Part shown: positions 2,825 to 12,716 of the stretch, piece after piece
Numbering within the stretch: the first letter of the stretch is position 1
Layout of the letters: each line of letters opens with the position of its first letter
Source of the DNA: a virus
Length of the DNA: 41,175 nucleotides
Reading direction: 5' to 3' (one strand)
IMG/VR virus record: IMGVR_UViG_3300022707_000755
Position numbers and translations under genes: made by a program
The notes under the pieces: model-generated
Told to the model about the DNA's origin: nothing
The model's input: only the letters and a program-made list of their open reading frames with translations
Database searches by the model: none

Positions 2825-2884
2825 TCGTTTATCCCCTTAGTGATGAATCAATAATAGGCCACTCTATATGTTTTAGCAGTGACC

Positions 2885-3325
2885 TTAACTTTCAGTGTCG
2901 GTAGCCATTTCAATCAAATCATGGTTTTCGTAAATATTACCGATAACAGCTATCTGGCCATGGGGTCCGGTAAAAATCGAGTCTGTATACCCATCATCAT
3001 TGAATTGAATGCAAAATCCACAACCGGAAAATATAACTTTCCCAATATTTGATATAGAGTCCTTATACTCATCTAATTCCATTGAGTGCCGACCTTCACT
3101 GTTTAACGATTGAGATGGCCAATCTGTATACAAAATACGTACAATGTCCCCCTCGTATATCTCTTTTCCGTTCTTATCCTTTAGCCCTGTGTATTGCATG
3201 AAAATATACTCATCCACATCAGCCATCCTCCGGCCTTCATATGAATATATCTCCTGAATTGTCGCTGTAACATTACCCATCTTTTTGTGTGGCGCTATCC
3301 ATGTCCTAAACTTAATTTCTCGCAT
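2885..3325 (-). CDS. YopX-family phage protein
   Basis: MREIKFRTW..., MQYTGLKDKNGKEIYEGDIV and VIGNIYENHDL blocks are typical of YopX. Confidence 0.85.
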   Translation of the reverse strand: MREIKFRTWIAPHKKMGNVTATIQEIYSYEGRRMADVDEYIFMQYTGLKDKNGKEIYEGDIVRILYTDWPSQSLNSEGRHSMELDEYKDSISNIGKVIFSGCGFCIQFNDDGYTDSIFTGPHGQIAVIGNIYENHDLIEMATDTES

Positions 3326-3336
3326 AACCTACCCCC

Positions 3337-3510
3337 TTAATTACCCGCTATCTCTTCGACTTTAGGACCCCAATACCACTTGTGGCCACCCTCATGCTTT
3401 GCGACATTAATTCTATCTAGCTCGTCTTGTGCTGACATCTCATGGCTAATTCCAACCAATACAGTAATGAGAGCACCCCCGATCAATCCCAATACAAAAG
3501 ACCTACCCAT
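3337..3510 (-). CDS. Small membrane-anchored protein (57 aa)
   Basis: Hand translation MGRSFVLGLIGGALITVLVGI...; overlaps the upstream gene by 8 nt. Confidence 0.5.
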   Translation of the reverse strand: MGRSFVLGLIGGALITVLVGISHEMSAQDELDRINVAKHEGGHKWYWGPKVEEIAGN

Positions 3511-3682
3511 TATCAATAATCCCTTTTTCGGTCAGCTTATCCTGAAGATCATCACTCAGCTTATTAATAGCTATGATTTCATCATGAATGTCCTCGAAGT
3601 CTAAAAGTGCTGCTGCCGAACCAAGTATCTCAAGATCATTTGCCAGCTTTAATACCTTATGGATACCTACTAATCTCTGCAT
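3503..3682 (-). CDS. Hypothetical protein (59 aa)
   Basis: Hand translation MQRLVGIHKVLKLANDLEILG...; one codon below the track cutoff. Confidence 0.5.
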   Translation of the reverse strand: MQRLVGIHKVLKLANDLEILGSAAALLDFEDIHDEIIAINKLSDDLQDKLTEKGIIDNG

Positions 3683-3744
3683 GGGTAAATCCTTTTATAT
3701 TATTATGGTTTTACTGCCGTTAAATTAGATCTAGCCTCATTATT

Positions 3745-3915
3745 TCAGTGCTTGCACGCATTTTTCTTTACATGCCGCTTTAGTGACACGGGATATTTGC
3801 TTGAAAAGTCACAATCATTACATGAGTACATCTTCTCACCCGTGTACTGCTTAGCCTTCCTGCTCACTATTGTCTTTGCGTGCAGTTTAGTTGTCTCAAT
3901 TGTTGTAAATATCAT
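3745..3915 (-). CDS. Small C2H2 (C2HC) zinc-finger protein (56 aa)
   Basis: Hand translation ...QYTGEKMYSCNDCDFSSKYPVSLKRHVKKNACKH; C-x2-C-x12-H-x5-C spacing; ATGA overlap with the upstream gene. Confidence 0.55.
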   Translation of the reverse strand: MIFTTIETTKLHAKTIVSRKAKQYTGEKMYSCNDCDFSSKYPVSLKRHVKKNACKH

Positions 3916-9276: not shown

Positions 9277-9433
9277 CGTAACAGCGATTAAAACCGTAGA
9301 CCGGCCTCACACTGTTGCCTTGATTACGGCGATTGAAGAGGCTATTGAAGAGGTAGCTCTTGGTAATATGACTGCCGTAGAAATCATTGGGTGCCTGCAC
9401 ATGGTGGCCGCTAACTACCTACCTAAAGATTAA
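9269..9433 (+). CDS. Hypothetical protein (54 aa)
   Basis: Hand translation MDNVTAIKTVDRPHTVALITAIEEAIEEV...; ATG overlaps the upstream gene end. Confidence 0.5.
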   Translation: MDNVTAIKTVDRPHTVALITAIEEAIEEVALGNMTAVEIIGCLHMVAANYLPKD

Positions 9434-9443
9434 CCAACCCTTT

Positions 9444-9496
9444 AAAGCCCTTACCGTGTCACGCCTTAATTGGTTATTTCAGGGTAGGGGCTTTTT
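9444..9496 (+). terminator. Intrinsic terminator (12-bp stem AAAGCCCTTACC / GGTAGGGGCTTT, then a T-run)
   Basis: Hand-folded; followed by TTTTTAATGCCT, the same 12-mer that follows the terminator at 12441-12477. Confidence 0.7.
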
Positions 9497-9534
9497 AATG
9501 CCTGTTGAACCTGTAAGTATTTCTTACAAGTTGC

Positions 9535-9562
9535 TTGATTGTGGCCACAGATGGGTTATAGT
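9535..9562 (+). promoter_or_regulatory. Candidate sigma70-type promoter (TTGATT - 16 nt - TATAGT)
   Basis: Hexamers read directly; just downstream of a terminator and upstream of the gene at 9588. Confidence 0.5.
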
Positions 9563-9587
9563 GTGGGCACACATAAGGGAGAAGATA

Positions 9588-9740
9588 ATGAAGACAGCAA
9601 CACACGCCACAAGATCATGGCCTAGAGATCTATTTAAAATGATAGATGGTAAATGGCACACATGGTCGCAAAATAATAAATGGGTAAGGTGCCACAATGG
9701 TTTCAATACATCTAATTTAGTAAGACTAGGTGGCGGGTAG
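9588..9740 (+). CDS. Hypothetical protein (50 aa; track ORF 9387..9740 extends upstream across the terminator)
   Basis: ATG at 9588 is preceded by SD AAGGGAGA. Confidence 0.5.
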   Translation: MKTATHATRSWPRDLFKMIDGKWHTWSQNNKWVRCHNGFNTSNLVRLGGG

Positions 9741-9786
9741 GTTAGTACAGTACTAATTAACTAATAACCATTAATAAGGGGATTAC

Positions 9787-9975
9787 ATGAAAAAACTAGG
9801 TGTTAGATTTGATACTGAAAAGGTTAATAGCGATCTTGGCAGGATCGGCAAGCATACGGGCAAATCTAAGTCTGAGGTAGCTAGAACTGCTATGCAAATT
9901 GGACTGGACTGCCTTGACGGTTATTTATTAAATAGGCGTGAGATTGCCATTCAGCTTATAGAGGAGTTTAAATAA
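9787..9975 (+). CDS. Ribbon-helix-helix (Arc/CopG-like) DNA-binding protein
   Basis: N-terminal beta strand LGVRFD followed by ...SKSEVARTAMQIGLD helices; recognised by eye. Confidence 0.45.
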   Translation: MKKLGVRFDTEKVNSDLGRIGKHTGKSKSEVARTAMQIGLDCLDGYLLNRREIAIQLIEEFK

Positions 9976-10259
9976 TGCCTGACCATATCAAGCGGGACAA
10001 GATAATAGTGAGCGAATTAAAGCCATGCCCATTCTGCGGCGATACACCAAAACTTCCAAGTGGTGACGGCACTGAATACGAAATAGAATGTAATTGTGGT
10101 ATGGCCATGTCATCAGTGCAGATATGCGACCTAATGACAATTAACGAGCGGCAGTCTGATGAGTTTATTGACCATCGCTATCAAGAGGTTTTTGTCGCGA
10201 GGGCAAGAGATCAAGCTATTATCAATTGGAATAAGCGGGACAAGGAGGCGGGGAAGTAA
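9975..10259 (+). CDS. Lar-family (restriction-alleviation-like) zinc-ribbon protein
   Basis: SELKPCPFCG..(x)..YEIECNCG matches the Lar-family N-terminal zinc-ribbon pattern. Confidence 0.55.
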   Translation: MPDHIKRDKIIVSELKPCPFCGDTPKLPSGDGTEYEIECNCGMAMSSVQICDLMTINERQSDEFIDHRYQEVFVARARDQAIINWNKRDKEAGK

Positions 10260-10462
10260 TGGAATACCAAGAAGCGTGTGAAAAATTAGCCCTGATGATT
10301 ATTAAGGATAATCACGCCAGGGTGAGCTATGGCTGGCCAATTGAATACTTTCATAAGTTAATTGGTGATGGCGAAACGAATGCGATGGCCTTATCAATAG
10401 TGAAGGCAGAGGGCGGTTTTGAAGGTTACGAAGCTACGCACGATGAGAGATTCGAAGCTTAA
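10259..10462 (+). CDS. Hypothetical protein
   Basis: ORF track; TAATG coupling. Confidence 0.6.
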   Translation: MEYQEACEKLALMIIKDNHARVSYGWPIEYFHKLIGDGETNAMALSIVKAEGGFEGYEATHDERFEA

Positions 10463-10500
10463 ATATCAACCCATAGACTATAACTAATAAGGTGATGAAT

Positions 10501-10782
10501 ATGATTGTAACGAAAGAGCTTAAGAGTTTAGAAGATTTTCAAGGACTAAAGAAAGGTGATGTTGTTGCGGTAGAGTGGCGTCGAGATGTACCTGTGAACA
10601 AGAGAGGCACAAAAAAAACTCGTTTTGCCAGTTATGAAATTGCGGATAATCTAGAGCGCACAACAGAGATAATCCTACATAAGCCGATGAATATTTATTT
10701 CAATTACTCAATGTTTCTAAACCCAGAAGAAATGGGTGTAAGCAATGTTCGTACGATTACGCTATTAATCGCTGAAGTTTAA
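10501..10782 (+). CDS. Hypothetical protein (start moved to the ATG best spaced from SD TAAGGTG; track start 10492 is a GTG)
   Basis: ORF track plus SD spacing. Confidence 0.6.
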   Translation: MIVTKELKSLEDFQGLKKGDVVAVEWRRDVPVNKRGTKKTRFASYEIADNLERTTEIILHKPMNIYFNYSMFLNPEEMGVSNVRTITLLIAEV

Positions 10783-10813
10783 TAACCGCCCTATGGGCAT
10801 AAGGGATAGACAA

Positions 10814-11098
10814 ATGAATAAGCACAGCAAGTACCGCAAGTTATTAGACGATGTAAAGGATCAAGTATGCAATGCTGAAATAGGCGTAACTGGCGTTTAC
10901 CAGTTAATGCTTGAAACCCTGCATAAGGCTGAGAAAGAAGAAGAGGCGCTACAGGCTCATATAGTTTCGTTAAGAAACGCTATTGCAGGCCCTAGTGCAT
11001 ACCTTGACAGCAATAAAATGAATACCCTGGGGCGTGATTGTGTTTACCACCAGATAATGAAGGAAGCATTAGAGAATACCGAACCACCAACCCTATAG
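10814..11098 (+). CDS. Hypothetical coiled-coil protein (start at the ATG after SD TAAGGGATAG; track start 10793)
   Basis: ORF track plus the genome-wide SD motif. Confidence 0.55.
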   Translation: MNKHSKYRKLLDDVKDQVCNAEIGVTGVYQLMLETLHKAEKEEEALQAHIVSLRNAIAGPSAYLDSNKMNTLGRDCVYHQIMKEALENTEPPTL

Positions 11099-11144
11099 CA
11101 CTTAATATGCTATATAAGGCCATTACATTTTAAAGGGGTAGGAT

Positions 11145-11327
11145 ATGTATAAGTATATTTTAACCGTGTGGTTCAAGTTTAAATACCGGCATATTTCTTA
11201 TAATGAAGTTTGTTGTTGTGGCGAGGGCATGGAAAGCCACAGTGCTTATTCCAATCATAGCCCCGTTTGCGAGAAGGAATGGGCAATAGAAAGCGCAGTT
11301 GATCGGATTATTAAGGGGGGTAAGTAA
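11145..11327 (+). CDS. Small Cys-rich protein
   Basis: ORF track; ...EVCCCGEGMESHSAYSNHSPVC... Confidence 0.55.
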   Translation: MYKYILTVWFKFKYRHISYNEVCCCGEGMESHSAYSNHSPVCEKEWAIESAVDRIIKGGK

Positions 11328-11677
11328 TGGATATATCTACACTAAGCGATGAAGAGCTTAACAGGGCTATGATATGGATTAATCCTCCAGCTCATGGAGT
11401 TTTTACGGATGATGAATGTGGCGTGTATTCAAACTCTGTTCGTGGCCATGGTTGCAATAAGATTGACTATTTAGAAGACTGGTCATTAACTGGGCCTCTT
11501 ATGGTTAAGTATATGGGCAGTCACAGGTATGAGATTGATTTTTATCGCGACAAGGACGATGACGAATACAAAGTGGAATCACTTATCGATGATTGCTGCT
11601 ATATATTTGCAAATATAAACCCACTACGCGCCATATGTGAAGTAATTATTATGATTGAAATGGCTAATAAATCTTAA
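11327..11677 (+). CDS. DUF2591-like phage protein
   Basis: LSDEELNRAMIWI..., DYLEDWSLTGPLMVKY and NPLRAICEVI fit the DUF2591 pattern. Confidence 0.55.
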   Translation: MDISTLSDEELNRAMIWINPPAHGVFTDDECGVYSNSVRGHGCNKIDYLEDWSLTGPLMVKYMGSHRYEIDFYRDKDDDEYKVESLIDDCCYIFANINPLRAICEVIIMIEMANKS

Positions 11678-11894
11678 AGTAAATATCAGTGATATTAATC
11701 TAATAAGGTTTATTATGTAGTTGTGGTCGCGGTGGGATGCCCTATGAAATGAAGCTTAGTGCACTGAGTGGATACCCTGGCAGTCTCGGGCTATGACTGT
11801 CCGCCACAAACCTCCGTTATCACTATTCTATAGGTGTTAGAAATGTGGACTGAAACTGGGCAGTATATCCCGGTGCCAAATTAAGGGGGATTGA

Positions 11895-12017
11895 ATGCTA
11901 TTATTTCTTATTCAGTTGTCCGCATGTATCGCAGAGAAAAGTCCAGCGCCTAGAGAAGATTTACCTAGCTGGCACACCTCAAGAACCAGCCGACCCCTAC
12001 AGGTAGGCTATGGCTGA
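11895..12017 (+). CDS. Possible 40-aa lipobox peptide inside the ORF-poor locus (doubtful)
   Basis: Strong SD TTAAGGGGGAT 4 nt before the ATG; MLLFLIQLSAC has an L-S-A-C lipobox but no basic n-region; overlaps predicted RNA helices. Confidence 0.25.
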   Translation: MLLFLIQLSACIAEKSPAPREDLPSWHTSRTSRPLQVGYG

Positions 12018-12146
12018 GACAGCTTTAGGTGCAACTGCGATACTGTCGGCACCGGTAACAAATGGCAGAATGATTTATGATTCGACTGAGACAACAGTAA
12101 ATCCGTGTTCTCGTGCCGTACCACGGGAACCAATAGAGTTTATTTG

Positions 12147-12253
12147 GTAGCTATCTTACTTGGTGACGTGTGTTCTGAAAGGTTCGATTCCTTAATTTGC
12201 CTTGGTGGCCGGATAATGCTGGAGGGTTCGATTCCCCGGAGATAGCTACACCA
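12147..12253 (+). ncRNA. Non-canonical tRNA-like module: a 10-bp acceptor-like helix ending in A-CCA that encloses two T-arm-like hairpins and a D-arm-like hairpin
   Basis: GTAGCTATCT (12147-12156) pairs perfectly with AGATAGCTAC (12240-12249), followed by ACCA; T-loop hairpins at 12179-12193 and 12222-12237 each carry GGTTCGATTCC; GCC-TTGGT-GGC hairpin at 12199-12209. No cloverleaf or anticodon arm could be drawn. Confidence 0.55.
12159..12235 (+). repeat. Tandem duplication of a CTTGGTG - 15 to 17 nt - GGTTCGATTCC unit
   Basis: CTTGGTG at 12159 and 12201; GGTTCGATTCC at 12181 and 12225 (period 42-44 nt). Confidence 0.8.
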
Positions 12254-12346
12254 ATAGGCTTTAAGTCTATTAAACCATATCAATCACTTAGGAGGTGTCC
12301 GAGATTAGAAGTGTAGTACTTGAATTTGGATATTCACAAAACCTTT

Positions 12347-12378
12347 AGGCCCTTTTCATTATGACTAGGGCTTTTTTT
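12347..12378 (+). terminator. Intrinsic terminator (AGGCCC / GGGCTT stem, 15-nt loop, T7 run)
   Basis: Hand-folded. Confidence 0.6.
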
Positions 12379-12440
12379 ATATCTGGGTTATACTCAGCGC
12401 AGGTGTTTGAGATATAGTGTTTCTTTCGTCTATCCCTTAA

Positions 12441-12477
12441 AACCCTAATCTAGCTAATCACTGGATTGGGGTTTTTT
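12441..12477 (+). terminator. Intrinsic terminator (10-bp stem AACCCTAATC / GATTGGGGTT, T-run)
   Basis: Hand-folded; followed by TTTTTAATGCCT as at 9492-9503. Confidence 0.75.
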
Positions 12478-12491
12478 AATGCCTATCTATA

Positions 12492-12520
12492 TTGACTTAG
12501 TACCTATAACCATATATATT
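12492..12520 (+). promoter_or_regulatory. Candidate sigma70-type promoter (TTGACT - 17 nt - TATATT)
   Basis: Hexamers read directly; 35 nt upstream of the gene at 12555. Confidence 0.6.
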
Positions 12521-12554
12521 CAATACACATTCAGCCAATACAGGAAATAAACAA

Positions 12555-12716
12555 ATGGCACAAGATGGAAGAGTTACAGTTGTACTTGGCCCTAAGCACG
12601 ACAAGAGTTTAATCTCTGAACTAGAGGCTTATGCGCTTAAACACACAGCTGGCAATGTCACACAGGCAGCTCGCGAATTAATGGCCAAAGGTTTGGTTAA
12701 GGGGTTAAATAAATAA
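12555..12716 (+). CDS. Ribbon-helix-helix DNA-binding protein (53 aa)
   Basis: Hand translation MAQDGRVTVVLGPKHDKSLISELEAYALKHTAGNVTQAARELMAKGL...: a beta strand followed by two helices. Confidence 0.45.
   Translation: MAQDGRVTVVLGPKHDKSLISELEAYALKHTAGNVTQAARELMAKGLVKGLNK

Follow-up and report, generated by a model that had tools for sequence, protein, structure and literature searches.

A candidate double T-arm, tRNA-like small RNA in an ORF-poor region of a P22-like phage genome

The window examined here, a viral contig of 41,175 nucleotides (nt) held in IMG/VR as record IMGVR_UViG_3300022707_000755, belongs to a P22-like phage and encodes a P22-type coat protein, a portal protein, a terminase, an injectosome protein and a tailspike head-binding domain. 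Its rightward early genes (9387-11677) lie 5' of a region, positions 11678-12554, in which the list of open reading frames (ORFs) holds none of 60 amino acids (aa) or more on either strand, the maximum on the + strand being 40-46 aa. A reading made by eye from the letters alone (the sequence-only reading) had pointed to this scarcity of ORFs, and had proposed that the region encodes a single large structured RNA of ~877 nt. Inside the region we find an element of about 105 nt that resembles a transfer RNA (tRNA) carrying two T-arms on one long helix, to which we refer as the double T-arm element. On balance we lean towards reading the region not as one large RNA but as an accessory transcription unit of composite make-up, in which a genuine small RNA derived from tRNA is embedded. 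The region also differs from its flanks in GC content (0.46 as compared to ~0.40).

The double T-arm element contains two exact copies of GGTTCGATTCC, the canonical tRNA T-arm sequence, with loops that follow the T-loop consensus GTTCRANYC. The GG of a tRNA D-loop is present as well, in a D-loop-like TTGGTG that stands ahead of each T-arm copy (12160-12165 and 12202-12207). Both GGTTCGATTCC loops sit within a helix of 10 base pairs (bp), 12147-12156/12240-12249, as the sequence-only reading had described, and all other helices that it listed, including the one at 12107-12130, are likewise complementary. Along the + strand the window presents every part of what we propose as a double T-arm class, namely a long helix, a D-like loop, a first T-arm, a hairpin with a GG loop, a variable hairpin and a second T-arm (Table 1). 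The element departs from a canonical tRNA in that P1 has 10-11 bp, compared with the 7 bp of an acceptor stem, and in that a T-loop occupies the anticodon position.

Table 1. Features of the region and of the double T-arm element, in window coordinates
Feature	Position	Strand	Basis or remark
Promoter-like site GTGATA-16 nt-TATTAT	11689..11716	+	promoter scan; presumed activity
Window-specific leader, ~175 nt	11719..11894	+	helices 11721-11809, 11755-11768, 11781-11799, 11856-11873
ORF, 40 codons, MLLFLIQLSACIAEKSPAPREDLPSWHTSRTSRPLQVGYG	11895..12017	+	homologue P0141
Window-specific spacer with hairpin 12018-12047 (5-bp stem complementary)	12018..12084	+	counterpart absent from L159
Conserved block: 4-bp hairpin and 9-bp hairpin GTTCTCGTG-CCGTAC-CACGGGAAC (12107-12130)	12085..12130	+	
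Double T-arm tRNA-like RNA, ~105 nt	12147..12249	+	read from sequence; covariance model R1
Closing helix P1	12147-12157 with 12239-12249	+	perfect 10 bp, 11 bp with one G-U
D-like stem-loop, 2-bp stem, loop UUGGUGAC	12158-12169	+	
T-arm 1	12179-12193	+	GGTTCGATTCC at 12181-12191
Hairpin P3, GCC-UUGGU-GGC	12199-12209	+	
Weak hairpin P4	12210-12221	+	
T-arm 2	12224-12236	+	GGTTCGATTCC at 12225-12235
Hairpin AATAGGC-TTTAA-GTCTATT (AATAGGCTTTAAGTCTATT), 7 bp	12253..12271	+	23 nt identical in L159, no variation
Window-specific 3' segment, ~75 nt, with TAGGAGGTGT	12272..12346	+	only 13 nt there in L159
Intrinsic terminator 1: 7-bp stem, inner 3-bp stem, then seven T	12347..12378	+	sequence and fold; identical in L159
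Inter-terminator segment, starting ATATCTGGGTTATACTCA	12379..12439	+	start identical in L159
Intrinsic terminator 2: 11-bp stem, then six T	12440..12478	+	folding z-score -3.2; aligned to NsiR1 terminator
Promoter-like site of the next operon, TTGACT-17 nt-TATATT	12492..12520	+	10/12 consensus matches; next gene begins at 12555

A protein-database search with the 116-aa gene upstream of the region led to the sole syntenic relative found, a 42-kb contig (L159) in which 904 nt at the corresponding place are free of genes. Relatives either lack the locus altogether or, as in L159, carry a gene-free stretch there; the region is not a decayed gene, the alternative that the sequence-only reading had allowed for. 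An alignment of the window and L159 elements with MAFFT and RNAalifold misplaced the closing helices, and we therefore used a covariance model (R1) built from the window sequence alone and a hand-drawn structure. R1 aligns L159 positions 10303-10406 at full length (25.3 bits, E = 3e-6 in 1.1 kb). The L159 element has diverged in sequence, its T-arm counterparts reading GGTTCAATTCC and GGTTCGAATCC, and it forms a clean 5-bp P4 and a T-arm 2 of 6 bp. Between window and L159 six pairs have changed on both sides (three in P1, two in the D-like stem and one in P3) while every aligned pair stays intact, with the limit that, as there is a single syntenic relative, the covariation for this exact RNA rests on one sequence pair. 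In the loop of T-arm 1 the window has UUCGAUU where L159 has UUCAAUU; the two conform to the T-loop consensus, and no anticodon is retained. An encoded ACCA behind P1 was considered as a tRNA-like 3' end and set aside, since it is absent in L159.

Scanning IMG/VR for the pattern GGTTCGATTCC-N20-50-GGTTCGATTCC retrieved at least 119 contigs. Among the matches listed, many consist of a tRNA followed by a fragment, the first loop coming from a real tRNA, and in about a fifth a closing helix abuts the second T-arm. Closing helices of at least 10 bp were found in 10 of the 113 listed double T-loop matches, against 0.8 expected from swapped flanks (~12-fold enrichment), and their length across class members runs from 10 to 24 bp. 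By covariance model, the same architecture is present in about 25 IMG/VR phage contigs among the matches listed, many of these elements lying in or beside tRNA arrays. Together with a derived model, R2, R1 aligns 27 elements, all of which score at least 38.7 bits; under R2 the window reaches 84.7 bits and L159 41.0 bits. Standard pairs fill 91.6% of the pair cells in the resulting 27-sequence alignment (A6), as compared to 55% after shuffling and 43-50% with slid partners, a fraction that is inflated because members were pre-selected and fitted to the model, and changes on both sides are seen in 11/11 P1 pairs and 3/3 P3 pairs. About 400 kb of phage loci that had not been picked for T-loops gave no model match apart from L159.

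Two further kinds of T-arm-bearing RNA were noted in the course of these scans. One is a separate, well-conserved phage RNA family whose two GGTTCGATTCC loops lie ~35 nt apart (consensus ...CTCGnTnGnCGAGGTCTGGTGAGAnGGGAG...) and are often preceded by a third T-arm, seen at loci L005-L007, L012, L027, L037, L063, L066, L070, L076, L081, L093, L095, L107, L108, L116 and others; no Rfam family covers it at gathering thresholds, and the Pseudomonas phages Ebordelon and Holyagarpour carry it without annotation. The other is a three-armed version at 2848-2934 (- strand) of L156 and its flanks, where three tandem TTGGTR-T-arm units lie in one closing helix (tgctaatg/cattagca). A double T-arm element with a long closing helix was also seen in a tRNA island of L054 (10302-10398, - strand), ~420 nt 5' of a GOLLD RNA (9422-9892, - strand), to whose variable 5' half it may belong.

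A cmscan search of the whole window against Rfam at gathering thresholds gave 0 matches, and ARAGORN reported 0 tRNA genes and no tmRNA in the window. With the cutoff relaxed to E <= 10, tRNA-Sec ranks first among the relevant Rfam matches (12150-12246; 18 bits, the threshold being 47), with no match to RF00005; at the loci tested, no Rfam family overlaps the element. BLASTN searches with the region found no counterpart among cultured phages, plasmids and E. coli genomes, exact-block scans in which three conserved blocks were run on metagenome and genome collections each gave 0 matches, and two of the conserved blocks are absent from 185,579 species genomes. In IMG/VR, AATAGGCTTTAAGTCTATT has two chance matches only, within unrelated sequence, and the hairpin block has none. 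Synteny searches via the 116-aa upstream gene found nothing in IMG/VR; the 172-aa downstream gene is shared by 36 IMG/VR loci and by the contigs of three closer proteins, and none of these has the locus. One contig with a homologue of this 172-aa gene, L123, has 899 nt (3012-3910) without an ORF of 60 aa or more 5' of it, with no tRNA and no Rfam match. RNAs with two T-arms were not described in the literature that we searched.

These comparisons bear on the reading that the double T-arm element is non-functional debris, a rearranged or partly duplicated tRNA gene left behind by recombination in a tRNA island and too young to have lost its T-loop sequences, which we consider unlikely, if worth weighing with care. 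Degenerate tRNAs are many in phage tRNA islands, and the numerous double T-loop matches that join a real tRNA loop to the loop of a fragment are in line with such an origin, as are the short inner stems, the weak P4 and the failure of ARAGORN and Rfam to recognise the element. Against it, P1, the D-like stem and P3 stay paired through six double changes while the intervening sequence diverges, and the architecture recurs in unrelated contigs with differing sequence, with closing helices enriched among the matches listed. Moreover, the flanking hairpins and terminators are 95-100% identical between window and L159, as compared to 79% for the upstream gene.

The unit in which the element lies is a patchwork. 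About 350 of the 877 nt are common to window and L159, in five blocks: the promoter, 12085-12130, 12147-12249, 12253-12271 and both terminators. In the first of these (11640-11718), 3 of the 78 positions aligned as far as TATTATG differ between window and L159; right behind the -10 element, similarity ends. From there on, the 5' part of the unit comprises 365 nt in the window (11719-12084) and 77 unrelated nt in L159. The leader (11719-11894) has a homologue in none of L159, another phage contig (L169) and the searched collections, and its folding z-score, +0.9 to -1.2, is that of background; its 3' end carries a Shine-Dalgarno-like AAGGGGGA (11884-11891) ahead of the 40-codon ORF. Further downstream, positions 12085-12128 are 95% identical to L159 10139-10182, and in the 9-bp hairpin the outer two pairs, G-C and U-A, have become G-U and U-G in L159, so that pairing is retained. 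In L159 a tRNA comes next, an extra type II-like gene (10188-10287; Rfam tRNA, 36.4 bits; missed by ARAGORN) that stands between hairpin block and element and has no counterpart in the window. This tRNA has an apparent 8-nt anticodon loop, ATTAAACA.

At its 3' end the unit is closed by the two + strand intrinsic terminators that the sequence-only reading had noted (~12347-12378 and 12440-12478), both of which are present in L159 too; in terminator 2 a CT is replaced there by TC and pairing is again retained. A simple scan had missed both terminators because their loops exceed 8 nt. Upstream of them, no ORF follows the Shine-Dalgarno-like sequence of 12272-12346. The segment between the terminators, which includes a TATACT hexamer, might give rise to a further short transcript ending at terminator 2. 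The promoter-like site that had been placed behind the terminators was also recovered, and after it come recombination genes, a YqaJ exonuclease among them, and NinG. Two broader elements of the sequence-only reading are supported, namely a discrete + strand unit with a tRNA-like structured RNA, closed by two terminators, and a phage, tRNA-associated setting.

The 40-codon ORF of this unit found a homologue in a full HMMER search, P0141 (56 aa, 68% identity, E = 1.1e-5), encoded on L169, which shows 78% DNA identity to window 11879-11982. Over the first 30 codons, window and L169 show 5/3/13 differences at the first, second and third codon positions, with a nonsynonymous to synonymous ratio (pN/pS) of 0.27; the alternative two frames give pN/pS of 1.2 and 5.6 and contain stops. 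Because of this 68%-identical homologue and the pN/pS value, we hold with moderate confidence that the ORF is probably a real small protein gene, with a predicted hydrophobic N-terminus. It matches no Pfam or PHROG family, and its reading as a lipoprotein (lipobox LSAC) was rejected, as Cys11 is Val in P0141. In L169 the homologue lies directly 5' of a tRNA-Met and a second tRNA-like gene. The tRNA-like gene at L169 5444-5559 (Rfam, 34.2 bits) bears a ~54-nt insertion in its anticodon region, which could be an intron, or else the tRNA could be degenerate. Two sequencing runs in Logan yielded four contigs that match the window at 100% identity, and all of them start or stop within 11908-11937, inside the 40-codon ORF; this clustering suggests a branch of the assembly graph (population variation) at that point.

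The place of the element within the unit raises the question of a role in cis, as tRNA-like punctuation at which host RNase P, RNase Z or exonucleases would cleave or shield the 3' ends of the early-operon and ORF messages. We regard such a role as doubtful. It would suit an element that stands at the operon 3' end in both phages, immediately ahead of the terminators, and the sequence scan revealed no terminator separating the upstream gene from the unit; in several other phages a T run lies directly behind the closing helix. Yet most class members are found within tRNA arrays and not at operon ends, and a conserved promoter block stands directly upstream. RNase P substrates are measured by a fixed 12-bp ruler, which does not match closing helices of 10-24 bp.

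The proposal that ~11720-12378 forms one large ornate RNA of a new class, similar to GOLLD or ROOL and with the tRNA-like domain embedded in it, appears very unlikely. In its favour are the ORF-poor sequence, the raised GC content, the terminators on one strand and the location of the L054 element 5' of a true GOLLD on the same strand. The whole 703 nt also fold with a z-score of -1.75 on the + strand versus -0.28 on the - strand, a comparison made with 20 shuffles only. In windows of 150 nt, however, folding is at background: the helix-richness from which the proposal had started does not exceed that of the flanking genes (mean + strand z-score of -0.34 inside the region versus -0.26), and only 11900-12049 (-2.8) and the terminators (-3.2) stand out. 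The long-range pair between ACACCTC (11974-11980) and GAGGTGT (12292-12298) is likewise at chance level, with 2 such 7-mers observed and 1.5 expected (P = 0.39). A cmscan search of 11500-12700 recovered no GOLLD, ROOL, OLE, raiA, tmRNA, RNase P or group I intron at E <= 10, and the same Rfam library detects the GOLLD (RF02032) of L054 at 198.6 bits. The sharing of ~350 nt in five blocks, the remainder being exchangeable cargo, also counts against one large RNA, since the replacement of the 5' part in L159 and the tRNA inserted there show that part to be dispensable, and the 40-codon ORF evolves as coding sequence. The original observation is thus confirmed in part: its interpretation as a giant ornate RNA is unsupported, and the evidence favours a smaller, unusual tRNA mimic.

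That the T-loop copies are tRNA 3' fragments of an attachment site (attP), at which the phage would integrate into a host tRNA gene, is hardly credible and has little support, for although the phage is P22-like and tRNA 3' segments are frequent in the attP of temperate phages, no integrase was found among the scanned ORFs of the 41-kb contig (the large ones and part of the small ones), a covarying helix encloses both T-loops and D-like loops are present, neither of which attP needs, the ACCA is not conserved, and the absence of the two tested blocks from the species genomes weighs weakly in the same direction.

Several points weigh against the composite reading and the tRNA-derived RNA in it. 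The exact locus is carried by one relative only, and the IMG/VR members of the class had been pre-selected for two exact T-loops before they were fitted to the model; R2, moreover, gives tandem tRNAs 22-35 bits as well. Within the window the T-arm stems have just 3-4 bp, P4 is weak, and the element folds with a z-score of -0.5. That the 40-codon ORF is coding has been judged from 21 differences in one pairwise comparison. Finally, the decoy mechanism set out below is one that we infer only, and that we put forward tentatively.

If the composite reading is correct, the unit would close the rightward early genes of this P22-like phage in the manner of a miniature phage tRNA island, with a promoter-like site, a leader with the 40-codon gene, the 9-bp hairpin, the tRNA-derived RNA, a hairpin and the two terminators following each other on the + strand. 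The RNA itself combines a closing helix of 10-11 bp with two T-arms (UUCGAUU) and two UUGG loops, and it has lost the anticodon arm and the 7-bp acceptor stem; this anatomy, how it has been kept through compensatory changes in one relative and how it recurs in other phages are what the sequences show. In the tRNA elbow, G18 and G19 dock on pseudouridine 55 and C56; each UUGG loop may dock on a T-loop in the same way, which would fold the RNA compactly around two elbows. Host tRNA enzymes, or proteins or RNAs that bind elbows, could recognise such an RNA. As a trans-acting mimic of tRNA it may, for instance, be a decoy that diverts an elbow-binding factor of the host, a defence nuclease directed at tRNAs being one candidate. 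A decoy role is attractive because the element adjoins anti-restriction genes and tRNAs. A Lar-like restriction alleviation protein is encoded inside the early operon (9975-10259; Pfam PF14354, E = 2.6e-9), suggesting an anti-defence neighbourhood, and phage tRNAs have recently been linked to escape from host nucleases that cut tRNAs. A more general, and speculative, possibility is that these elements represent a widespread uncatalogued phage RNA class with two elbows on one long helix, acting as trans tRNA mimics that soak up, for instance, a host defence nuclease or toxin directed at tRNAs or a tRNA-processing enzyme, in keeping with the location of the element near anti-restriction genes and tRNA islands.

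Five known systems stand closest to the element. Like the tRNAs of phage tRNA islands, among them the type II tRNAs and their long variable arm, it has a canonical T-loop, a D-loop-like GG and a terminal helix; in L159, as in many IMG/VR contigs, its neighbours are real tRNAs. It differs from them in the 10-24 bp helix of its class, the T-arm at the position of the anticodon arm, the lack of a conserved CCA and scores below the Rfam and ARAGORN thresholds. ARAGORN labels some class members "tRNA-Ser(cga)" because it reads the first T-loop as an anticodon loop. With the tRNA-like domain of tmRNA (transfer-messenger RNA) the element shares a T-arm and a terminal helix, and in the window an ACCA behind that helix; unlike tmRNA, it has no tag reading frame, no pseudoknots and no G3:U70 pair, and the ACCA does not extend to L159. 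As small stable phage RNAs that are encoded along with tRNAs and processed by tRNA enzymes, species 1 and 2 (RNA C and D) of the T4 tRNA cluster would be comparable to the element.

YrlA-type Y RNAs have one T-arm and one D-arm with an acceptor-like stem-loop between them, as well as a Ro60-binding helix, and are encoded beside Ro60 (Chen et al. 2014, PMC4201824). The element resembles YrlA in that a T-arm and a D-arm are kept on a long helix, decoding is lost and occurrence is in phages. It differs in order, which in the window is D-like, T, D-like, hairpin, T. Rfam Y RNA families gave no match at E <= 10 in 11500-12700, no Ro60 homologue, or homologue of that size, was found among the large ORFs, and the TROVE domain is present in none of the ORFs of at least 400 aa. 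GOLLD and ROOL are similar to the element in their phage or prophage location and association with tRNA islands, and a GOLLD RNA follows closely on the 3' side of one class member; they are RNAs of ~580-800 nt with a conserved multi-pseudoknot core and covariation all along, unlike the conserved core described here, which spans ~105 nt, or ~190 nt with the flanking hairpins, the remainder being variable or coding. Judged by sequence and predicted structure, the element thus appears to be an unusual form of the tRNA-like RNAs of phages, matching no catalogued RNA family that we searched.

For annotation, these results mean that a long, gene-free and helix-rich gap in a phage genome can be pieced together from a small gene, a small RNA and terminators, and need not be one large RNA. 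Neither tRNA finders nor Rfam pick up RNAs of the kind described here, which are therefore probably under-counted. If phages repeatedly carry a tRNA-derived RNA in which decoding features are lost and the T and GG loops of the elbow are kept and doubled, this would point to a different use of the tRNA shape by phages.

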